Shown here in pieces: positions 2,915-30,388 of a DNA stretch of 64,000 nucleotides. The notes under the pieces were generated by a model. That model had not been told where the DNA came from and did no database searches. It saw nothing but the letters and a program-made list of their open reading frames with translations. How positions within the stretch are numbered: the stretch's first letter is position 1; every line of letters starts with the position of its first letter. This DNA comes from Escherichia phage pEC-M719-6WT.2. The stretch is from sequence record OQ845958.1; one strand, written 5' to 3'. A program made the position numbers and the translations under genes.

Positions 2915-3078
2915 TTGAATTATTGTTGGGTATTTTGTATCTTATCATCGGTATTGGTTATGCTAAGACCCTAGCTAAAATAGATGATTTCGGTGCGGGT
3001 GACTTTTGTTGGTGGCTGACGTCTATGATTTGTTGGCCTTTATTTCTGGTTGGTGCTTCATTCTGGAACTTTAAATGA
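2911..3078 (+). CDS. small hydrophobic membrane protein
   Basis: 55-aa ORF MIELLLGILYLIIGIGY..., ATGA overlap with nrdC stop; below ORF-track size cut-off. Confidence 0.35.
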   Translation: MIELLLGILYLIIGIGYAKTLAKIDDFGAGDFCWWLTSMICWPLFLVGASFWNFK

Positions 3079-3247
3079 CCGAATTTGATATGGCCTATAA
3101 AACCTGCGCAAGAGAGTTTGATACTCCTGCGCCTAGTAAAGAAACCGTATTGGCAAATCTCCCGGATTGGTTAAAAGAAGAAGCCAACGAATGGGGTTGG
3201 ACTGATACTTGTGTACGCGACCAGTTATTTGAATTTATGGTGGAATT

Positions 3248-3556
3248 ATGAGTGAATTAGACGGACAAACAATTTATCTGGGCGATGGCAACGAAGACGA
3301 CCTGGAATATAAACTATACGAATACATGGTCGCCCTGGCAAAGGAAGAAGGTATTGACTTTGCTGTGGCTAACCCGTATGGTGAGAACACTGTTGTAATT
3401 GGTGGCACTGCTTATGAAGTCCAATGGCAATACGTTGGGCTTGAATCTATAGAATATGAAGAAGATAAGCATGGCGATTGGCATCCGGTGGGTCCCTGGT
3501 ACTGGGACGACGGTGAGCCTGATTTTGAAGTATCAAGCTATTGGAGTGACCAATGA
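3248..3556 (+). CDS. hypothetical acidic protein
   Basis: 102-aa ORF, overlapping stop/start with next ORF. Confidence 0.45.
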   Translation: MSELDGQTIYLGDGNEDDLEYKLYEYMVALAKEEGIDFAVANPYGENTVVIGGTAYEVQWQYVGLESIEYEEDKHGDWHPVGPWYWDDGEPDFEVSSYWSDQ

Positions 3557-5121: not shown

Positions 5122-6935
5122 CAATTGAAAACGAAATTGAAGGATTGATTCATAAAACTAATAAAGACCTTTTAAACGAGAATGCTAATAAAGATTCTCG
5201 TGTTTTTCCAACTCAACGGGACCTTATGGCTGGTATTGTATCTAAACACATTGCCAAAAATATGGTTGCGCCTTTTATTATGAAAGCACATGAAAGTGGA
5301 ATTATTCATTTCCATGATATTGATTATTCCCCTGCTCTTCCATTTACTAATTGCTGTTTAGTAGATTTAAAAGGAATGCTTGAGAACGGATTTAAGCTTG
5401 GTAATGCACAGATTGAAACTCCTAAATCAATCGGTGTTGCTACTGCAATTATGGCACAAATTACTGCACAGGTTGCTTCTCACCAATATGGCGGAACGAC
5501 TTTTGCTAATGTAGACAAAGTATTTTCTCCTTATGTTAAACGTACATACGCAAAACATATTGAAGATGCAGAAAAATGGCAAATCACTGATGCATTGAAT
5601 TATGCCCAATCTAAAACAGAAAAAGACGTATACGATGCATTCCAAGCTTATGAATATGAAGTAAATACTCTCTTTAGTTCAAACGGACAAACGCCTTTTG
5701 TAACCATTACATTTGGTACGGGAACTGACTGGACTGAACGAATGATTCAGAAAGCAATTCTGAAAAATCGTATCAAAGGTCTTGGTCGCGATGGGATAAC
5801 TCCTATTTTCCCTAAACTTGTTATGTTCGTTGAAGAAGGTGTTAATCTTTATAAAGACGACCCGAACTATGATATTAAGCAGCTTGCTCTAGAGTGTGCA
5901 AGCAAAAGGATGTATCCTGATATTATTTCAGCTAAGAATAATAAAGCTATCACTGGTTCATCTATTCCTGTTTCTCCAATGGGTTGCCGTAGTTTCTTGG
6001 GCGTATGGAAAGATTCGACTGGTAATGAAATTCTTGATGGACGTAATAATCTTGGTGTTGTAACACTGAATCTTCCTCGCATTGCGTTAGATTCTTATAT
6101 TGGAACACAGTTCAATGAACAGAAATTTATCGAATTGTTCAATGAGCGAATGGATTTGTGTTTTGAAGCTTTGATGTGTAGAATTAATTCCTTAAAAGGA
6201 GTTAAAGCGACTGTTGCTCCTATTCTTTACCAAGAAGGTGCATTCGGGGTTCGTCTTAAACCTGATGATGATATAATTGAGTTATTTAAAAACGGTAGAA
6301 GTTCAGTGTCTTTGGGATACATTGGTATTCACGAATTGAATATTCTTGCCGGTCGTGATATTGGGCAAGAAATTTTAACTAAAATGAATGCTCGTCTTAA
6401 GCAGTGGACTGAAAGAACCGGTTTTGCTTTTAGTTTGTATTCTACACCTGCTGAAAACCTTTGTTATCGCTTCTGTAAACTTGATACTGAAAAATATGGA
6501 AGTGTAAAGGATGTTACTGATAAAGGCTGGTACACTAATAGTTTCCATGTTTCAGTAGAAGAAAATATCACCCCGTTTGAAAAGATTTCCCGCGAAGCTC
6601 CATATCATTTCATTGCGACAGGTGGTCACATTTCTTATGTTGAACTTCCTGATATGAAAAATAACTTAAAAGGTCTTGAGGCTGTATGGGATTATGCTGC
6701 GCAACATTTAGATTATTTTGGTGTTAACATGCCAGTAGATAAATGTTTTACGTGTGGAAGTACCCATGAAATGACTCCTACTGAAAACGGATTTGTTTGT
6801 TCTATTTGTGGAGAAACTGACCCTAAAAAGATGAACACAATAAGAAGAACTTGTGGTTATTTGGGAAATCCGAACGAACGCGGATTTAATCTCGGCAAAA
6901 ATAAAGAAATCATGCATAGGGTTAAACACCAATGA
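5118..6935 (+). CDS. nrdD: anaerobic ribonucleoside-triphosphate reductase
   Basis: 605 aa, C-terminal glycyl-radical motif RRTCGYLG and Zn-ribbon cysteines; one uninterrupted ORF. Confidence 0.92.
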   Translation: MTIENEIEGLIHKTNKDLLNENANKDSRVFPTQRDLMAGIVSKHIAKNMVAPFIMKAHESGIIHFHDIDYSPALPFTNCCLVDLKGMLENGFKLGNAQIETPKSIGVATAIMAQITAQVASHQYGGTTFANVDKVFSPYVKRTYAKHIEDAEKWQITDALNYAQSKTEKDVYDAFQAYEYEVNTLFSSNGQTPFVTITFGTGTDWTERMIQKAILKNRIKGLGRDGITPIFPKLVMFVEEGVNLYKDDPNYDIKQLALECASKRMYPDIISAKNNKAITGSSIPVSPMGCRSFLGVWKDSTGNEILDGRNNLGVVTLNLPRIALDSYIGTQFNEQKFIELFNERMDLCFEALMCRINSLKGVKATVAPILYQEGAFGVRLKPDDDIIELFKNGRSSVSLGYIGIHELNILAGRDIGQEILTKMNARLKQWTERTGFAFSLYSTPAENLCYRFCKLDTEKYGSVKDVTDKGWYTNSFHVSVEENITPFEKISREAPYHFIATGGHISYVELPDMKNNLKGLEAVWDYAAQHLDYFGVNMPVDKCFTCGSTHEMTPTENGFVCSICGETDPKKMNTIRRTCGYLGNPNERGFNLGKNKEIMHRVKHQ

Positions 6936-7402
6936 ATTATGATAGAATTTATCCTTGTGATTTTATTAATGGCCCTGGATGCAGGGTCGTTCTTTTCGTC
7001 ACAGGTTGTTTGCATAAATGCGAAGGGTGTTATAATAAATCAACATGGAATGCTAGAAATGGTGTTCCATTCACTGGTGAAACACTAGAACAATTAATTG
7101 AATGTTTGGATAATGATTATATAGAAGGATTAACTATAACTGGAGGAGACCCTCTCTATCCTGATAACCGAGATGTTATTCAATCTGTGGTTCAAACTGT
7201 TAAAAATCTTTATCCAAATAAAAGCATTTGGATGTGGACAGGATATAAGTTTGAAGATATTAAACAACTAGAAATGCTTAAATATGTTGATGTTATTATT
7301 GATGGGAAGTATGAGAAAAATCTTCCGACCAAAAAACTGTGGCGAGGGTCAGATAATCAGCGACTTTGGTCAAATACCGATGGGGTGTGGAAACATGATT
7401 AA
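6932..7402 (+). CDS. nrdG: anaerobic RNR activating enzyme (radical SAM)
   Basis: 156 aa, CLHKCEGC radical-SAM cysteine triad; ATGA overlap with nrdD. Confidence 0.9.
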   Translation: MNYDRIYPCDFINGPGCRVVLFVTGCLHKCEGCYNKSTWNARNGVPFTGETLEQLIECLDNDYIEGLTITGGDPLYPDNRDVIQSVVQTVKNLYPNKSIWMWTGYKFEDIKQLEMLKYVDVIIDGKYEKNLPTKKLWRGSDNQRLWSNTDGVWKHD

Positions 7403-10687: not shown

Positions 10688-11245
10688 ATGAACGAAATTA
10701 AATTAACCAAGAATAACTATGTAAATAATAAAGAGCTTCTGAAAGCTATTTCGGAGTGGAAACAGAAGCTGAATGCGAACACCGACCCGAATAAAATTAT
10801 TCGCCAGAACGATGTTATTGGTCTGGCAATTATGCTTATAGCCGAAGGTCTTAGCAAACGTTTCAACTTCTCCGGATATACCCAATCCTGGAAGCAAGAA
10901 ATGATTGCAGACGGAATTGAGGCCGCAATAAAAGGTCTTCATAACTTCGACGAAACAAAATACGATAATCCACATGCTTACATAACAATGGCTTGCTTCA
11001 ATGCTTTCGTTCAGCGTATCAAAAAAGAACGTAAAGAAATGGCAAAGAAATATAGCTACTTCGTTCATAACGTGTATGATTCACGTGACGACGATATGGT
11101 GGCTCTGGCTGATGAAACATTTATCCAGGACATCTATGACAAAATGACACAGTACGAATCCTCTTTAGTTAAAGCGCCAGGGTCTGATAAGAGCGCCAAA
11201 GATAAAGAAGGTGATTTGGATTTTTTATATGGAACATCAATTTGA
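10688..11245 (+). CDS. 55: late-transcription sigma factor gp55
   Basis: 185 aa; long identical runs to remembered T4 gp55 ([35 protein letters not shown]). Confidence 0.92.
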
Positions 11246-12278: not shown

Positions 12279-12302
12279 GGAAGCCTAGTGCTTCCTTTTT
12301 TG
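12279..12302 (+). terminator. intrinsic terminator hairpin GGAAGC-ctagt-GCTTCC + T-run
   Basis: Perfect 6-bp stem followed by TTTTTTT. Confidence 0.55.
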
Positions 12303-16329: not shown

Positions 16330-17025
16330 ATGAAATTCTCTAAAGACACTATCGCAGTTCTGAAAAACTTCACTTCCATTTACTCTGGCATTATGCTTAA
16401 GCCAGGTAATACCATCCTGACTCGTTCCGTAACTGGAGCGTCATATGGCGAAGCCGAAATCAATGATACAATTGACTTTGAAGCTGCAATTTATGACCTA
16501 AACGGCTTCTTAAGTATCCTGGGCCTGGTAACTGACCAAGCTGAAGTATCTCTGGCTGAAGATGCATCAAACATCATTATCAAAGACCAACGTTCAACGA
16601 TTCACTGGCCTGCTGCAGACCCGAGCACTATCGTGTTCCCTGCTAAGAAGATTCCTTTCCCGGTAGCTAAGGTTATTTTCGACCTGAAAGGTAGTGACCT
16701 GCAACAGCTTCTGCGTGTGGCTGGTGGTTTGTCTCTGGATACTTTTGCAATCACCAACAAAGACGGTAAGATTGTTATCCATGGTTATAATCAGCTCGAA
16801 GATAAAGAGTTAGCGCGTCCATTGTATTCCCTGGTGTGTGGCGATTACGAAGGTGATGCAGCGTTTAAATTTATCATTAACAAACTGAACATGAAAATGA
16901 TTCCGGCTGATTATCGTGTTATGCTTTGGGCAAAAGATGATAAATTTGCTACGAAGTTTGAAGGCACACAAGCAAGCTATGTGATTGCAATGGAACAAGG
17001 CTCTAGCCACGAATTCCAAGATTAA
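16330..17025 (+). CDS. 45: sliding clamp gp45
   Basis: 231 aa; MKFSKDTIAVLKNFTSIYSGIMLK... strongly matches remembered T4 gp45. Confidence 0.95.
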   Translation: MKFSKDTIAVLKNFTSIYSGIMLKPGNTILTRSVTGASYGEAEINDTIDFEAAIYDLNGFLSILGLVTDQAEVSLAEDASNIIIKDQRSTIHWPAADPSTIVFPAKKIPFPVAKVIFDLKGSDLQQLLRVAGGLSLDTFAITNKDGKIVIHGYNQLEDKELARPLYSLVCGDYEGDAAFKFIINKLNMKMIPADYRVMLWAKDDKFATKFEGTQASYVIAMEQGSSHEFQD

Positions 17026-19070: not shown

Positions 19071-21785
19071 ATGCAAGAATTTTATTTAACTATCGAACAA
19101 ATCGGTGACAATCTGCTCGAACGATACATTGACAAGAACGGTCATGAACGTGTTCGTGAAATCCCTTATGCTCCATGCTTGTTTATGCATGCTCGCGAAG
19201 ACCAGGCTGCAAAGTATACAGACATCTATAATAAAGGTTGTGTGAAAAAAGAATTCGATTCCATGCGTGATGCATCCCAGTGGATGAAGCGAATGAATGA
19301 CATGGGTCTCGAAGCTATGGGTATGGATGACTTTAAACTCGCATACTTGTCCGACCGTTACCCGCACGAAATCAAATACGATTCAAGTAAAATCCGTGTG
19401 GCTAACTTCGATATCGAGGTGACATCTCCTGATGGGTTCCCTGAGCCGTCTGAAGCACGTCACCCTATTGATGCCCTGACGCACTATGATTCGGTAGACG
19501 ATAAATTCTATGTCTTTGACCTTTTGAGCTCACCATACGCCACTGTGGAGCAATGGTCTATCGATATTGCTGCTAAGCTGCAAGAAGATGGCGGTGATGA
19601 AGTCCCTGAAGAAATCCTGGAAAAAATTGTTTATATGGCTTTCGATTCAGAAGAAGAAATGCTCCAGCAGTATTTGGTATTCTGGAACGAGAAAACTCCG
19701 GTTATGTTAACTGGTTGGAACATCGAGAAGTTTGATATTCCATATATCTACAACCGCCTTAAAAATGTATTTGGTGAAGCTACAGCAAAACGACTGAGTC
19801 CACATCGTCGTACAAAAGTTAAGGTCATTAACAATGGCTTCGGTGAAGAACAAGAAATCATTCAGATTCTGGGTATCTCTGTTCTGGATTATCTGGACCT
19901 GTACAAAAAGTTCAGCTTCACAAACCAACCGTCTTATTCGTTGGATTATGTTGCGGAATCTGAACTTGGTGTTGGTAAACTCCCGTATGATGGTCCGATT
20001 TCTAAACTGCGTGAATCAAATCACCAACGGTATATTTCTTATAACATCATTGATGTTTATCGTGTTGTGCAGATTGACCGTAAGCGGCAGTTTATTAACC
20101 TGAGTCAGTCAATGGGTTATTACGCAAAAATGCAGATTCAGTCTGTATTCAGCCCAATCAAAACTTGGGATGCGATTATCTTTAACAGCCTGAAGACTCA
20201 AAACAAAGTCATTCCGGAAACCAAATCGCATGTTCGCCAATCGTTCCCTGGTGCATTTGTTAAGGAACCGATTCCGAACGCATACAAATACGTTATGAGC
20301 TGTGACTTAACATCTCTGTATCCGAGCATCATTCGACAGATTAACATCAGTCCAGAAACGATTGCCGGGTCATTTGCACCAGCGCCGATGTACGAATACA
20401 TTGCAGGAACTGCTGACCGTCCATCTGATACATTTAGTTGTGCTCCAAACGGTATGATGTATTTTAAAGATGTTGCGGGTATTATTCCGACAGAAGTCAC
20501 CAAGGTGTTTAATCAGCGTAAAGAGCATAAAGGTTATATGCTTGCGGCTCAACGTAATGGTGAACTGATTAAGGAAGCCCTGCGTAATCCAGGAACTGGT
20601 ACAACCGAGCCTGAAGTTGATTATCGTTATGACTTTGATGACAATATGAAAACAACCTTGCATGGTCTGAATCAAACAGTTCTGAATGGTATGTTGTACA
20701 AAGCGCAAATGGAAGAAGTTGCAGGCATGACCGCACAGATTAACCGTAAACTGCTTATCAACAGTTGTTATGGCGCTCTGGGTAATATCTGGTTCCGTTA
20801 CTTTGACCTGCGAAATGCAACCGCGATTACATCTTTCGGACAACTTGCATTGCAGTGGATTGAGCGTAAAGTTAACGAATATTTTGATAGTGTTTGCGGT
20901 ACAAGTGGTGAAACATATGTATTCTATGGTGATACTGACTCCATTTATATCCAGTGCGATAACCTGATTAAAAAGGTTGGTGGTGAATCTAAATTCCGCG
21001 ATACAAACCACCTGGTTGACTTCATGGACAAGTTTGCGAAAGACCGTCTGGAACCGGCAATCGATAAAGCTTTCCGTGAGCTGGCTGAATACATGAACAA
21101 CAAACAACACCTTATGTTTATGGACCGTGAAGCGATTGCATGTCCTCCGCTGGGTTCTAAAGGTGTTGGTGGATTCTGGACAGCGAAGAAGCGTTATGCT
21201 CTGAACGTGTACGATATGGAAGGCACACGATACGCTGTTCCGAAACTGAAAATCATGGGCCTGGAAACTCAAAAGTCGAGTACACCAAAAGCATGTCAGA
21301 AAGCTCTGAAAGAATGTATCCGCCGTATGCTGCAAGAAGGTGAAGAATCTCTGCAGACATACTTCAAGGAATTCAACAAGGAATTTAATGAGCTTAACTA
21401 CATGACCATCGCAGGTGTATCATCAGTTAACAACATCCAGAAATATAATGAGGGTGGTTTCCCTGGATTTAAGTGCCCAGCTCATATCAAAGGCGTGCTC
21501 GCTTACATGCGTGCAACTAAAGGTATGAAGACTGTTCCACAAATCATGGAAGGGGAAAAGGTGTATGTACTTCCTCTTAAAGTTGGTAACCCGTTTGGCG
21601 AAACCGTGATTGCATGGCCATCAGGGATTGAACTCCCGATTGAAATCCGTGACCAGGTTCTGCAGTGGATGGACTACAACACACTGTTCCAGAAGACTTT
21701 TGTCAAACCGTTAACAGGGTTCTCTGAAGCGGCTAAGGTTGATTACGAGAAAAAAGCATCTCTTTTTGATATGTTTGATTTTTAA
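19071..21785 (+). CDS. 43: DNA polymerase gp43 (family B)
   Basis: 904 aa; exonuclease and polymerase motifs (FDIE, YGDTDS), N-terminus matches remembered T4 gp43. Confidence 0.97.
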   Translation: MQEFYLTIEQIGDNLLERYIDKNGHERVREIPYAPCLFMHAREDQAAKYTDIYNKGCVKKEFDSMRDASQWMKRMNDMGLEAMGMDDFKLAYLSDRYPHEIKYDSSKIRVANFDIEVTSPDGFPEPSEARHPIDALTHYDSVDDKFYVFDLLSSPYATVEQWSIDIAAKLQEDGGDEVPEEILEKIVYMAFDSEEEMLQQYLVFWNEKTPVMLTGWNIEKFDIPYIYNRLKNVFGEATAKRLSPHRRTKVKVINNGFGEEQEIIQILGISVLDYLDLYKKFSFTNQPSYSLDYVAESELGVGKLPYDGPISKLRESNHQRYISYNIIDVYRVVQIDRKRQFINLSQSMGYYAKMQIQSVFSPIKTWDAIIFNSLKTQNKVIPETKSHVRQSFPGAFVKEPIPNAYKYVMSCDLTSLYPSIIRQINISPETIAGSFAPAPMYEYIAGTADRPSDTFSCAPNGMMYFKDVAGIIPTEVTKVFNQRKEHKGYMLAAQRNGELIKEALRNPGTGTTEPEVDYRYDFDDNMKTTLHGLNQTVLNGMLYKAQMEEVAGMTAQINRKLLINSCYGALGNIWFRYFDLRNATAITSFGQLALQWIERKVNEYFDSVCGTSGETYVFYGDTDSIYIQCDNLIKKVGGESKFRDTNHLVDFMDKFAKDRLEPAIDKAFRELAEYMNNKQHLMFMDREAIACPPLGSKGVGGFWTAKKRYALNVYDMEGTRYAVPKLKIMGLETQKSSTPKACQKALKECIRRMLQEGEESLQTYFKEFNKEFNELNYMTIAGVSSVNNIQKYNEGGFPGFKCPAHIKGVLAYMRATKGMKTVPQIMEGEKVYVLPLKVGNPFGETVIAWPSGIELPIEIRDQVLQWMDYNTLFQKTFVKPLTGFSEAAKVDYEKKASLFDMFDF

Positions 21786-26033: not shown

Positions 26034-26045
26034 AATATTTAAAAA

Positions 26046-26068
26046 GGGGCTTACAGCCCCTTTTTCTT
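26046..26068 (+). terminator. intrinsic terminator GGGGC-ttaca-GCCCC + TTTTTCTT
   Basis: GC stem plus T-run immediately after gp41 stop. Confidence 0.6.
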
Positions 26069-26078
26069 ATGTTATAAT
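26051..26078 (+). promoter_or_regulatory. early promoter overlapping terminator (-35 TTACAG in loop, extended -10 TGTTATAAT)
   Basis: 17-nt spacing between loop hexamer and TATAAT. Confidence 0.4.
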
Positions 26079-26422: not shown

Positions 26423-26626
26423 ATGTATAAATTAGAAAACGTAGTATTTATTGGTTGGTTTGAAAATGGTAATATGTTTACCAAAGAAACCGCGCTGGAT
26501 GTTAGTGACCAAAATATGATTGAATGGGTTACAGTGCAGTATGCAGAAGTGAATAATGCGCTGGTTAAAGCCTTTGTTAATGACAATAAAGTTTTTGAAT
26601 ATGATGCCCGCATTGAGGAAATTTAA
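26423..26626 (+). CDS. Dmd-like small protein (tentative)
   Basis: 67-aa ORF in the gp41-gp61 island where T4 has 61.5/dmd; similarity recalled from memory only. Confidence 0.4.
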   Translation: MYKLENVVFIGWFENGNMFTKETALDVSDQNMIEWVTVQYAEVNNALVKAFVNDNKVFEYDARIEEI

Positions 26627-26866
26627 ATGAATATCACATTAATGAAACCTACCCCTAGTTCTTTTTGGAATAAATCTTTTGGTAAGCATAATATGTTTAT
26701 CCAACGCACCGTAAGCAGCTGGGAACTAGTTCTTTCAGTCGGCCACAATGATTATGAACAAGAATACGTAGAGTTCTTCGAATTTCCTGTGAAACCTACC
26801 AAGCGTCAGATTCGTCAGACAAAACGCAAATTCCGCAAAATTTATCTGGAAGATGCATTAAAATAG
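26627..26866 (+). CDS. hypothetical basic protein
   Basis: 79-aa ORF. Confidence 0.4.
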   Translation: MNITLMKPTPSSFWNKSFGKHNMFIQRTVSSWELVLSVGHNDYEQEYVEFFEFPVKPTKRQIRQTKRKFRKIYLEDALK

Positions 26867-26923: not shown

Positions 26924-27217
26924 ATGAAAAAGTTATTAATCGCGGCAATTCTTACCGTAGCATCATGTGGTACAGCTCCAGTTACTGCTGGACTTGATAA
27001 AGACCTTTGTGAGTGGTCTATGACTGCTGACCAGACTGATGTTGAACATCAGATTTATGCTGATATTATGAACATAACTAAACGTGACCGCCCTGATATG
27101 GTTAAAGAAGTATCTGACAAATTGACTTCTGGTGACGTTATGCAGTATAACTATGTTCTGTATTGCGATGCTTCATTTGACAATAGCAAAATTGTTCAAT
27201 GGGTTACAGGTGAATAA
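26924..27217 (+). CDS. sp: Spackle-like periplasmic protein
   Basis: 97 aa with signal peptide MKKLLIAAILTVASC; size and position (61.3-like) fit T4 spackle. Confidence 0.55.
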   Translation: MKKLLIAAILTVASCGTAPVTAGLDKDLCEWSMTADQTDVEHQIYADIMNITKRDRPDMVKEVSDKLTSGDVMQYNYVLYCDASFDNSKIVQWVTGE

Positions 27218-27218
27218 A

Positions 27219-27656
27219 ATGATTAACAGAAATTTAGTTATCAAAAAACTTCGCTGTAAAAATCCAAATGCACAGGCATACCGGGTGTTTTGGAGCGACG
27301 AAATTCAATACCTGGGTTATTTTCTTGTTGATAGTGATGATAGAATTACGTTTGCTCATAAGCTTCTTAACAAAGAATTAAACCATTGGCAAGAACTTAT
27401 TGCAGTCAAGTCTAAATTATTTTCGCGCAATACAATGCACCAATTGGTTTATTTTTTCGCTGATGGTATTCCTGACAAGGTTGAGTTTGATGGGTTTGAA
27501 TTTAAAGACATCAATCCTAACAATGAATTGAATGACAGTATTGTTAATATGGGTATTCCTGGTAAGTACATCAAAAACAGTCTTTTGAAAATTCTGGAAA
27601 CCCCTGTATATTCAGTTGACGACCAAATTTTTAATGCCTTTATGAAGCGAGATTAA
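27219..27656 (+). CDS. hypothetical protein (paralogous C-terminus)
   Basis: Ends ...DDQIFNAFMKRD, same tail as next ORF. Confidence 0.45.
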   Translation: MINRNLVIKKLRCKNPNAQAYRVFWSDEIQYLGYFLVDSDDRITFAHKLLNKELNHWQELIAVKSKLFSRNTMHQLVYFFADGIPDKVEFDGFEFKDINPNNELNDSIVNMGIPGKYIKNSLLKILETPVYSVDDQIFNAFMKRD

Positions 27657-27657
27657 T

Positions 27658-28026
27658 ATGTATATTCAAAGCGATTTGTCTTATCTGAATTTTGAATTAG
27701 TTAAAAATAATGATGGTAATGCTCATTATGAATTCCGCGAGCCTCGTTATAATCAGGCGATTGGTTATATTATTGTTAAAGATGGCGTTATCATAAAGGC
27801 TCGCTCATTTATGGTAATGAATGGGCCTTATGAAGATACTCGTGGCTATCCATTTGATAAAAAGAATGTACGCGATTGTGCAGCGTGGATAACCGGAAAT
27901 CCTGAAATTGGGGTCATGCTATCTACTGAAGCAAATGACATTCTGGATGCTGGCTGGGTTAAATCTCAAGAACCGCCTACTGATATTGATGACCAGATTT
28001 TTAATGCTTTCATGAAGCGAGGTTAA
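27658..28026 (+). CDS. hypothetical protein (paralogous C-terminus)
   Basis: Ends ...DDQIFNAFMKRG. Confidence 0.45.
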   Translation: MYIQSDLSYLNFELVKNNDGNAHYEFREPRYNQAIGYIIVKDGVIIKARSFMVMNGPYEDTRGYPFDKKNVRDCAAWITGNPEIGVMLSTEANDILDAGWVKSQEPPTDIDDQIFNAFMKRG

Positions 28027-28027
28027 T

Positions 28028-28219
28028 ATGACTGCAATGTGTACGGGCTCTAAGATTTCGGTCTTCCAGATTTTTGAAGAATATGAAATCGTGTCGCAAG
28101 ACCAAGAAGCAATCCATGTTATCGCTGATGATGGTGTTACCTGGATTATTCCGTTGTATCATGAAGACACCTATGAAGTGACTGATGCAAATGGCGATAA
28201 AGCTATCTTCGTTGTATAA
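28028..28219 (+). CDS. hypothetical acidic protein
   Basis: 63-aa ORF. Confidence 0.35.
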   Translation: MTAMCTGSKISVFQIFEEYEIVSQDQEAIHVIADDGVTWIIPLYHEDTYEVTDANGDKAIFVV

Positions 28220-28222
28220 ATA
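28215..28222 (+). promoter_or_regulatory. late promoter TATAAATA
   Basis: Exact T4 late consensus 18 nt upstream of ATG-28240. Confidence 0.45.
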
Positions 28223-28239
28223 GCGGAAAGGGGGGTGTT

Positions 28240-28407
28240 ATGAAAACATTCAAAGATTTTATCAATGAAGATATGGTTGCCGGTGATGCAGGTGGAAACC
28301 CAACTAATATCGCAACAGGTACCACTTCCGGGGCAGTTGTCAATAAAGGTCCTGAACAAATCCCATCAAAAAAGCGTAAGAATAAAGACGATAAACCTAC
28401 AGTATAA
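28240..28407 (+). CDS. small Gly/Thr-rich protein with basic tail, late-promoter driven
   Basis: 55-aa ORF with SD AAGGGGGG; followed by hairpin ATGGTCC-tccg-GGACCAT. Confidence 0.35.
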   Translation: MKTFKDFINEDMVAGDAGGNPTNIATGTTSGAVVNKGPEQIPSKKRKNKDDKPTV

Positions 28408-28439: not shown

Positions 28440-29468
28440 ATGTCATATATTGATAGAGAATTTGCAGTCAAAGCTTTATCGTATCAACCACGTTACAGAG
28501 AAGTCACCGGGAGCACATTTAAGGCAAACTGTCGTTGTAAGGTTTGTGGTGACTCCCAGAAAGATTCGCACAAGGCTCGATTCTGGGCGTATACCAATCC
28601 ATCTGATGGTGCGGTTTACGTGAAATGTTTTAACTGTGACTACTCCACGCATATAAGCAAATACATAAAAGAGTTTGAGCCGGATTTGCACCGGGAATAT
28701 ATGGTTGAGAAGTACAAGGAAAACGCCTTCGGTCGACAACGTAATGAAGTTGCAGAAGCTCCGAAAGAACCAGAAAAAACTCCGGTTATTGAAGAGCTTG
28801 CTTTTTGTGAAAGAATTGATACTTTACCAGAAGAGCATCCGATAGTTAAGTATGTAAAAAGTCGGTGTATTCCGAGCAATGTTTGGAACCGGTTATGGTT
28901 TACAAACAAATGGCCTGCATTAGTTAACTCCGTTAATCCTGGGACGTATAAGAATGAAACGAATGAACCACGCTTGGTTATTCCTATCTTCAACGGCAAA
29001 AAAGAAATCGAATCTTTCCAAGGACGAGCTCTTCGCAAAGATGCACCACAAAAATATATCACAATCAAAGCTCACCCAGAAGCTTCCAAAGTCTATGGCG
29101 TAGACAAGATTGATGAGCGCAAGCGCGTGTGGGTAATGGAAGGTCCGATTGATAGTTTGTTTATCCCTAACAGCATTGCGATAACTGGTGGAACATTAGC
29201 ATTGGAAGCCGTTCCTTATGCTGAAACCCGAGTATGGGTAATGGACAACGAGCCAAGACATCCGGATACGATTAAACGTATGAAGAAGCTCGTTGAAGCG
29301 GGTGAAGCCGTTATGTTCTGGGACAATGCACCATGGCATACGAAAGACATAAATGAGATGGTTAAATCGGAGGGCGCAACCCCTGAACAAATCGAATCAT
29401 ATATGGCCGATAACATTGCTCAAGGGTTGATGGCGAGAATGCGACTTTCGAAGTACGCAAAAGTTTAG
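28440..29468 (+). CDS. 61: DNA primase gp61
   Basis: 342 aa; N-terminal zinc ribbon (CRCKVCGDS...CFNCDY); same length as T4 gp61. Confidence 0.92.
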   Translation: MSYIDREFAVKALSYQPRYREVTGSTFKANCRCKVCGDSQKDSHKARFWAYTNPSDGAVYVKCFNCDYSTHISKYIKEFEPDLHREYMVEKYKENAFGRQRNEVAEAPKEPEKTPVIEELAFCERIDTLPEEHPIVKYVKSRCIPSNVWNRLWFTNKWPALVNSVNPGTYKNETNEPRLVIPIFNGKKEIESFQGRALRKDAPQKYITIKAHPEASKVYGVDKIDERKRVWVMEGPIDSLFIPNSIAITGGTLALEAVPYAETRVWVMDNEPRHPDTIKRMKKLVEAGEAVMFWDNAPWHTKDINEMVKSEGATPEQIESYMADNIAQGLMARMRLSKYAKV

Positions 29469-29784: not shown

Positions 29785-29869
29785 ATATCCTCCTTCCGTG
29801 TATTTATGCTTCAAACCAATATGATATAATTAACATACAAAATAACATGAATTGATAAGGAAAAATATA

Positions 29870-30388
29870 ATGGCTCATTTTAATGAATGTTCACAACTGA
29901 TTGCCGGTGTTGATAAAGCTGCTCTGGCTTATGACAATGCAATTACAAAAGGTACTGACCCGCTGCAGATTATGCTTGATATGCAGAAATCATTGCAAGT
30001 TCGTCTGGCTACTGAAAAACCAGAATATAACTCACATCCAGATGAATTGGCTACTGCAGGTGATGTTGTTGCATGGCTTCGTAACCAGAAAGATTATATC
30101 GACGACGAATTCCGTGAACTTCTGACTTCTCTCGGTGGTATGTCTAATGGCGAGAAAGCTGCATCTAGTGTATGGAAACCATGGAAAGTCCAACATGCTG
30201 AATTCCGTAATCGTCGTATTGATGAGTTGTCTCCCGAAGACCAGCTCGAAATTAAATTTGAGATGATTGATATCCTGCACTTTGTTCTGAACATGTTCCA
30301 TGGCCTTGGACTGACTGCAGAAGAAATCTTTAAATTGTATTACCTGAAAAACGCTGAGAACTTTGCTCGTCAGGACCGGGGTTATTAA
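29870..30388 (+). CDS. 56: dCTP pyrophosphatase gp56 (MazG-like dCTPase/dUTPase)
   Basis: 172 aa, MAHFNECSQLIAGVDKA...IDDEFRELLTSLG...FARQDRGY; strong match to remembered T4 gp56. Confidence 0.88.
   Translation: MAHFNECSQLIAGVDKAALAYDNAITKGTDPLQIMLDMQKSLQVRLATEKPEYNSHPDELATAGDVVAWLRNQKDYIDDEFRELLTSLGGMSNGEKAASSVWKPWKVQHAEFRNRRIDELSPEDQLEIKFEMIDILHFVLNMFHGLGLTAEEIFKLYYLKNAENFARQDRGY

Follow-up and report, generated by a model that had tools for sequence, protein, structure and literature searches.

We analysed a stretch of 64,000 nucleotides from Escherichia phage pEC-M719-6WT.2 (OQ845958.1), hereafter the window, and focused on two consecutive open reading frames (ORFs), ORF1 (145 amino acids, aa) and ORF2 (122 aa), that end in the same short peptide. 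The two genes occupy the slot of AdfA (anti-DarT factor A), directly after spackle (sp) and before 61.1 and the primase gene gp61. The window is of a T4-like phage: this region is 99% identical to Escherichia phages ECML-359 and EAWsc9, and the Gaprivervirus phages SP18, VR20 and VR7 show 86–94% identity to the window over the same region. The gene order in the window is helicase gp41, a 105-aa ORF, dmd, a tifA/61.4-like gene, spackle, ORF1, ORF2, a 63-aa ORF, 61.1 and primase (Table 1). The dmd-tifA-sp-adfA region of T4-like phages has been named the "anti-toxin island", and its remaining genes were called "attractive anti-toxin candidates" (Srikant et al. 2022, PMC9391042).

The shared C-terminal tail

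As the preliminary description had reported, both ORFs end in DDQIFNAFMKR(D/G), ORF1 in SVDDQIFNAFMKRD and ORF2 in DIDDQIFNAFMKRG, and each tail is followed by a stop codon, one base and an ATG, so that the heptamer TAATATG stands at both junctions. A six-frame scan of the whole 64 kb, allowing up to four substitutions, detected the 11-residue peptide only at 27618–27650 and 27988–28020. When ORF1 was compared with ORF2 by BLASTP, the tail segment alone aligned (12/18 identical, E = 3e-6 for this single comparison). The two 3' ends were also alike as DNA, and this likeness was restricted to about 45 nt around the tail. The 11 shared codons differed at four nucleotides, all of them third-position and all synonymous; with about 5.3 synonymous sites among the 33, the probability that four randomly placed differences would all be synonymous is about 7e-4. 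The tail match is real and far beyond chance, and because the differences are synonymous only, the tail is maintained as a peptide. A duplicated 3' gene end, one of the two explanations first offered, does not hold as a recent DNA event: the synonymous sites of the tail are nearly saturated with the amino acids identical, and the tail is carried by orthologues across T4-like genera of enterobacterial phages. Comparison with relatives revealed the tail on every full-length orthologue found, so that a loss of the tail in orthologues, which would have refuted the first interpretation, was not observed.

The tail is the C-terminal signature of the AdfA family. The one Pfam match of ORF2 was AdfA (PF23813), with residues 109–122 aligned to profile positions 198–211 of 211; the score of 20.7 bits came from the tail alone and was below the Pfam gathering threshold of 27. 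ORF1 gave no Pfam AdfA match at E ≤ 0.1, and the PHROG cross-matches among ORF1, ORF2 and the 210-aa family were confined to the tail. In T4, AdfA is gp61.2, lies between spackle and 61.1/primase, and has the C-terminus SIDDQIFNAFMNRG; RB69 adfA was cloned with a reverse primer whose sequence encodes IFNAFMNRG-stop (PMC11257639). The signature ...DDQIFNAFM[NK]R[GD] at the extreme C-terminus is present in ORF1 and ORF2, and T4 and RB69 AdfA end alike. Across the family, the tail consensus covers 12–14 residues, [S/D][I/V]DDQIFNAFM[K/N][R/K][G/D].

Table 1. Features of the window from the end of the helicase gene to the primase gene.
Feature	Position	Strand	Basis
G+C-rich stem-loop with a T-run after it, just past the helicase gene; an early-type sigma-70 promoter-like site (CTTACA-17-TATAAT with TG) overlaps it	26041..26078	+	consensus scans
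dmd, inhibitor of RnlA/LsoA toxins and the first of the named anti-toxin island genes	26423..26626	+	Pfam Dmd 1.6e-20, PHROG 2e-33
gp61.4/TifA-like gene (DUF7279)	26627..26866	+	Pfam DUF7279 8.6e-20; position matches tifA of T4
Spackle (sp), upstream border of the AdfA slot	26924..27217	+	Pfam T4_Spackle 4e-43
ORF1, 145 aa, body type B (phrog_8539)	27219..27656	+	
ORF1 tail, residues 132–145	27612..27653	+	
Junction TAA-T-ATG: ORF1 stop, one base, ORF2 start	27654..27660	+	
ORF2, 122 aa, body type C (phrog_4122)	27658..28026	+	
ORF2 linker, residues 103–109, model confidence (pLDDT) <50	27964..27984	+	
ORF2 tail, residues 109–122	27982..28023	+	
Junction TAA-T-ATG: ORF2 stop, one base, start of the 63-aa ORF	28024..28030	+	
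63-aa ORF (phrog_3249); RB69-type phages also have one after adfA (gene fragment 5, PMC11257639)	28028..28219	+	PHROG
gp61.1 homologue (phrog_1823)	28240..28407	+	PHROG
gp61 primase, downstream border of the locus	28440..29468	+	

To map the distribution of the tail, its back-translated sequence was scanned as degenerate DNA in IMG/VR, in JGI/ENA metagenome contigs and in GTDB representatives (one genome per prokaryotic species), with a pattern in which the amino acids QIFNAFM were preset. C-terminal matches in IMG/VR and the metagenome contigs fell on T4-like phage contigs only and on three body types only: A, AdfA of 208–223 aa; B, ORF1-type of ~145 aa; and C, ORF2-type of 116–125 aa. Protein searches added a subfamily of 143–144 aa, termed B2, together with divergent type C subtypes. 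Tail-less tblastn against phage records returned 487 of type A, 85 of type B and 332 of type C. QIFNAFM in unrelated ORFs (L003, L004, L006, L008, L009, L013, L016, L017, L019 and others) was internal rather than C-terminal and was attributed to chance. Host mimicry was likewise rejected: a DQIFNAFM scan of 185,579 representative genomes gave three matches, in unrelated metagenome-assembled genomes (MAGs), about the number estimated for chance.

In every locus with its layout examined, the tail-bearing genes begin right after sp, and the divergent members and metagenomic variants P0022, P0014, P0024 and P0029 also start directly after spackle. The layout is sp-A-61.1 in T4 and sp-C-61.1 in T2; A-C tandems occur in L026, L035, L036 and L046, and sp-B-C in SP18, VR20, VR25 and this window. 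Dhakavirus-type contigs (e.g. JS10) have B without C after it, in loci that are partly truncated, and in VR26 (L023) B is followed directly by the next gene. The T2 gene (L057, PV958097.1, 1501–1857) is a 118-aa ORF2-type gene with the AdfA tail, in the order sp, gene, 61.1, primase; T2 has been described as naturally lacking an adfA homologue (PMC11257639). A Logan contig (SRR21291449; L061) carries B2 and a frameshifted C: downstream of the B2-type gene, the ORF2-type gene (2937–3294) is broken into pieces of 63 aa and 68 aa. The tail of this frameshifted copy, DDQIFNAFLKRGE, has M replaced by L and one extra residue (NAFLKRGE), the sole C-terminus-extending variant seen. The annotators of SP18 recorded that its B gene resembles a JS98 gene and its C gene an RB32 gene. 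One member of an ORF2-type cluster (P0004) is labelled in NCBI as a Limosilactobacillus reuteri MAG, and is most likely a misbinned T4-like coliphage contig.

The bodies of ORF2 and ORF1

Sequence comparison showed ORF2 to be a single-domain homologue of the C-terminal half of AdfA (AdfA residues ~112–195). The type C profile reached AdfA at E = 1.4e-9 among 1.84e9 proteins, with query positions 20–117 aligned to AdfA 113–210 plus a second AdfA stretch. A word-seeded search of type C against AdfA gave E = 2.6e-5 to 6e-4, with 26–27% identity and 96% query coverage. T4-type C proteins, with 41% body identity to ORF2, passed the Pfam AdfA model (32.4 bits vs 27; 21–118 vs 112–211). With the tails removed, hhalign aligned type C to both AdfA halves (E = 3e-4 and 1.3e-3), and ORF2 was the best match of a tail-less AdfA profile among 464 window ORF segments, with a weak score (E = 0.11). 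ORF2 is thus a remote AdfA member by transitivity, because its T4-type orthologues pass the threshold and its family profile finds AdfA, and its membership of the AdfA superfamily is very likely. Matches of the type C profile to P0062 (Big_2 repeats) and P0063 (DUF285) were discarded; these are long repeat proteins with summed weak repeat matches, not relatives.

AdfA itself seems to contain, through internal duplication, two copies of the domain that is present once in ORF2-type proteins; its self-alignment is weak (E = 0.08). On T4 AdfA (L028, 1940–2566), the C and B2 profiles each aligned to both halves (residues ~35–75 and 111–172).

The AlphaFold2 model of ORF2 comprises a four-stranded sheet, a helix (68–79), a strand, a helix (90–104), the linker and a tail helix. 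AdfA binds DarT1 when residue 164 is His, as in the R164H form of RB69 AdfA (PMC11257639). This switch site, the H/R of NNIN[H/R]IAS, corresponds to H165 in T4 and pairs in the alignment with D73 of ORF2, within predicted helix 68–79. ORF2 therefore retains that portion of AdfA which is known to determine target binding. In ORF1, no residue could be matched to the site. Since Asp stands where AdfA needs His for DarT1 binding, the targets of ORF2 may differ from those of AdfA.

The preliminary description had called the bodies of the two ORFs unrelated, which is probably wrong. The ORF2 body is homologous to the C-terminal half of AdfA as described above, and ORF1 showed weak, consistent, tail-independent similarity in profile–profile comparison, in secondary structure, in Foldseek and through a bridging subfamily. 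Tail-less hhalign scores were 23.6 for B with A, 19.6 for B with C and 31.9 for B2 with A, compared with column-shuffle nulls of ~12 ± 2.4, and for all four tail-less pairs (observed 19.6–31.9) the observed score was reached by 0/150 column shuffles. B aligned collinearly with A over 76 columns and with C over 58 columns. B matched B2 at 98% probability, and B2 in turn matched both AdfA halves (E = 4e-4 and 3e-3), which makes B2 a bridging subfamily. The AlphaFold2 model of ORF1 has four or five strands, a helix, a strand, a disordered stretch, a helix (SKYIKNSLLKILE) and a tail helix; the order of elements is the same in both ORF models, namely four or five strands, helix, strand, helix and tail helix. 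In Foldseek searches against viral models, families A, B and C alone were returned at E ≤ 1e-3 with either ORF as query, with template modelling (TM) scores of 0.39–0.59 normalised to query length. These results suggest that ORF1 is probably a very divergent member of the AdfA superfamily.

The tail-less ORF1-family profile also gave a local match in a 156-aa radical-SAM activase-like protein at 6932–7402 of the window (Pfam Fer4_12 4e-49). This match (E ~3e-4 among 464 segments; 51 residues, ...GYKFEDIKQLEMLKYVDVIIDGKYEKN) is probably a chance similarity to the "GFEFKDI...SKYIKN" stretch of ORF1.

The role of the tail

We favour, with moderate confidence, the view that ORF1 and ORF2 are ancient, extremely diverged paralogues of the AdfA superfamily, built of a fast-evolving domain, a linker and an invariant partner-binding tail. 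Each protein would consist of a fast-evolving alpha/beta domain, a linker of variable length and an invariant C-terminal helix. ORF1 and ORF2 would inhibit defence toxins, DarT variants or others, with target specificity set by the variable domain, and the tail would be a short linear motif on a tether, docking onto a single conserved partner. A shared C-terminal interaction peptide, the other explanation first offered, is accordingly the one that we prefer. The first candidate for the partner is a conserved toxin groove, for which DarT-type ADP-ribosyltransferases could offer their catalytic or DNA cleft; a phage or host protein that is conserved would come second, and another copy of the tail (oligomerisation) third. 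The last tail codons may double as the ribosome-binding site for the next gene.

The predicted shape of the proteins is consistent with a tether. In the ORF2 model, the predicted local distance difference test (pLDDT) score was ~90 in the body, <50 in the linker and ~50 in the tail helix. Linker length differed by up to ~13 residues among homologues, with variable composition, and ORF1-type proteins have a predicted extra helix and a disordered stretch of ~20 residues between domain and tail. The polar tail residues D, D, Q and N were as invariant as the hydrophobic ones, and the helical hydrophobic moment of the tail was no different from that of shuffles. Because the linker is variable and predicted to be disordered, the polar residues are invariant and the body surface has diverged beyond recognition, this combination fits a tethered short linear motif recognised whole, and not a helix packed on the diverged domain surface.

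Several results weigh against this interpretation. In the tail-less hidden Markov model (HMM) search, the ORF1 body stayed in the background (rank 29 with the AdfA profile and rank 55 with the type C profile), and the hhalign probabilities for B with A or C were low (2–7%). ORF1 was modelled poorly by AlphaFold2 (pLDDT 57). The identical tail contributes to the Foldseek scores, and TM scores of ~0.5 are reached by unrelated small proteins as well. The low pLDDT of the tail could merely reflect shallow alignments (10–14 sequences). Deletion of adfA from T4 gave no phenotype against DarTG1 (PMC11257639). Finally, binding of the tail to any partner is what we infer from sequence patterns, and the candidate partners are hypothetical.

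A bolder version, which we regard as possible but doubtful, makes the tail a universal adaptor: interchangeable, fast-evolving toxin-recognition domains (AdfA, ORF1-type and ORF2-type) would plug into one conserved partner, and the 45-bp handle would double as a recombination site for head shuffling. DarT-type toxins could provide the partner in a shared catalytic or DNA cleft; alternatively, a conserved protein of the replisome or the host could bring the inhibitor to the toxin's site of action. If true, this would reveal a modular architecture of variable head and constant handle for phage counter-defence.

It is unlikely that the tail is an ordinary structural element, i.e. the last helix of a shared fold that packs on the domain without a separate partner. 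The tail is predicted to be helical in both models and is present in every intact member found, and its low pLDDT is perhaps an artefact of the shallow alignments. However, the linker before it is predicted to be disordered and varies in length, and the surfaces on which it would pack have ~21% identity or less, yet the tail is invariant, including polar residues that would face solvent. In ORF1-type proteins, the extra helix and the disordered stretch also separate the domain from the tail.

Conservation of the repeat mainly as nucleic acid, as a cassette boundary or recombination handle combined with the translation-initiation region of the next gene, with the peptide as a by-product, is improbable. 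Several features fit such a role: every tail is followed by stop, one base and ATG; the terminal Arg-Gly codons of ORF2 (CGA GGT) give GAGG 5 nt before the next ATG; cassette content switches exactly at the tails (A in T4, C in T2, A+C in AR1-type, B+C in SP18, B in VR26); and T4 recombines at short homologies (PMC9391042). In T4-type genomes with A alone, the DNA of the A tail matches that of the type C tail exactly (NRG), and A in A-C tandems ends in NKG, which fits deletion by recombination between two tails.

The codons point the other way. Among 20 distinct tail DNAs, third positions varied freely at the D, D, Q, I, A and F codons (GAC/GAT, CAA/CAG, ATT/ATA, GCC/GCT/GCA, TTT/TTC) with constant amino acids, the opposite of DNA or RNA constraint. 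For QIFNAFM, the amino acids of these DNAs are fixed by the scan pattern; homologues from the protein searches, an independent check, kept the tail core apart from rare single substitutions. Body identity was 21–41% in type C, compared with 11–13 of 13 tail residues, and 29–31% in type B, compared with 9–11 of 13. These comparisons showed that selection acts on the tail peptide and not on the DNA. No RNA structure was found around the tails (z = +2.2 and −0.1 vs shuffles). A MotA-dependent middle promoter in the tail (TGCTT(T/C)A box, 11–13 bp, TAnnnT) was rejected, as none of the six canonical matches in the window lies in a tail, and the key T of the would-be box is a freely varying synonymous site (GCC/GCT/GCA). 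The Shine-Dalgarno argument reaches the last two or three codons only, and the last tail codons of ORF1 (CGA GAT) give only a weak Shine-Dalgarno-like GAGA. With GAGG encoded in the final two or three codons and an unvarying stop-N-ATG junction after them, translational coupling is a probable constraint on the extreme end of the tail, and not on DDQIFNAFM. The repeated tail with stop-N-ATG (~45 bp) can explain, as portable homology, the gain and loss of whole cassettes; this seems to be a real, secondary consequence at the DNA level and not the cause of conservation.

The ends of the tails differ with their position. In all eight tandems seen (the window, 27645–27660 vs 28015–28030; L010, L011, L042, L026, L035, L036 and L046), the upstream copy ends in KRD (B+C) or NKG (A+C). 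Terminal and solo copies end in [K/N]RG, with the exception of VR26, whose B ends in KRD without a C after it. The KRD and NKG endings turn GAGG or AGAGG into GAGA or AAAGG before the ORF2-type gene, which gives a weaker Shine-Dalgarno.

That the bodies are truly unrelated, with the 3' end copied between genes or the same interaction peptide captured independently, is equally improbable: BLASTP, Pfam and PHROG matches confined to the tail and the failure of the tail-less HMM search to link ORF1 to the other types speak for it, but ORF2-type proteins align with AdfA over nearly their full length, the tail-less profile–profile scores beat all shuffles in every pair, B2 bridges B to AdfA, the types have a common slot, a common predicted order of secondary structure and reciprocal Foldseek matches, and the tail is too saturated at synonymous sites for a recent copy.

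Neighbouring genes and comparison with known systems

The promoter-like site just past the helicase gene is likely the start of an early transcription unit that holds ORF1 and ORF2. TifA of T4, the counterpart of the gene that follows dmd here, is a ToxN inhibitor (PMC9391042). SP18 (L051) lacks this tifA/61.4-like gene. In SP18, VR20 and many relatives, the ORF2-type gene is followed by a 73-aa gene (JS98 gp029-like, starting MFV...) that is absent from the window (window 28026–28240 vs SP18 1423–1644), and this absence explains an indel of ~180 bp relative to them. The content of the anti-toxin island thus differs gene by gene among close relatives. The six matches to the MotA-box pattern, compared with 1.5 expected by chance, lie at 12301, 12682 (minus strand), 15111, 29807, 40439 and 63332, one of them just upstream of a 178-aa ORF (29852–30388).

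Database names for these genes vary. The ORF1 orthologue is named "serine/threonine protein kinase" in EAWsc9 and "transcriptional regulator" in vB_YenM_P8, the ORF2 orthologue is named "DUF2528 domain-containing protein" in EAWsc9, and some records name neighbouring genes "major capsid domain-containing protein" or "exonuclease". Neither ORF1 nor ORF2 had a kinase, regulator or DUF2528 match in Pfam or NCBIfam, so these automatic annotations are inconsistent and unsupported.

AdfA, the idea of an anti-toxin island and the capture of T4-type C proteins by the Pfam AdfA model were already known. In the searched literature on AdfA and the island, we did not find at least three body types with one invariant, apparently tethered tail, the tandem occurrence of two body types, the placing of ORF1-type proteins with AdfA, or the half-size form in phages said to lack adfA (T2). 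Term searches of AdfA papers, PMC11257639 and PMC9391042 among them, returned nothing on the tail. AdfA is one of few known phage inhibitors of DarTG defence. The family is wider than described: 332 phage records hold a half-size form and 85 hold a 145-aa form, and ORF1 and ORF2 are two added candidate counter-defence genes in the anti-toxin island. A common docking or inhibitory role of the tail, if confirmed, would account for rapid diversification of the recognition domain under a constant mechanism.

A precedent for such a tail is provided by the gp45 sliding-clamp-binding tails of T4-family gp43 and gp55, in which a short hydrophobic C-terminal peptide on different proteins docks onto one partner. 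The tail core IFNAF and the LFDMF of this phage's gp43 share the pattern [ILMV]F[DN]xF. In the window, gp43 ends in KKASLFDMFDF (21750–21785), which we take to be identical to the clamp-binding peptide of RB69 polymerase, and the C-terminus of gp55 lies at 11210–11245. The clamp gp45 (16330–17025) is 61% identical to T4 gp45. The clamp-binding ends change between lineages (SLDFLFG in T4 gp43, SLDFLYEAND in T4 gp55), whereas the core of the AdfA-type tail is identical in T4 and this phage and the tail runs four residues past the motif. The pattern occurs four times in the window compared with ~1.3 expected, which is within chance, and the homologous tails make up two of the four. A clamp-binding role for the tail was considered but set aside as a resemblance only, with no enrichment and no co-variation with gp45 across lineages.

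The T4 internal proteins (IPI, IPII, IPIII and Alt) offer an analogous arrangement, as hypervariable anti-defence cargo from a plastic locus that share a short, conserved capsid-targeting sequence with a single function. That sequence is N-terminal, cleaved and carried by late proteins, whereas the tail is C-terminal and on early genes, and the two have no sequence similarity. Within the anti-toxin island, ORF1 and ORF2 resemble their neighbours as small early proteins adjoining dmd, the tifA-like gene and sp; Dmd and TifA differ in lacking the tail and are unrelated in sequence. AdfA has ~210 aa and apparently two copies of the domain, ORF2 has one, and ORF1 has one very diverged copy and an additional helix that precedes the tail; both ORFs fall short of the Pfam AdfA threshold. 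All three share the same C-terminal tail, the same slot and the same early-gene context.

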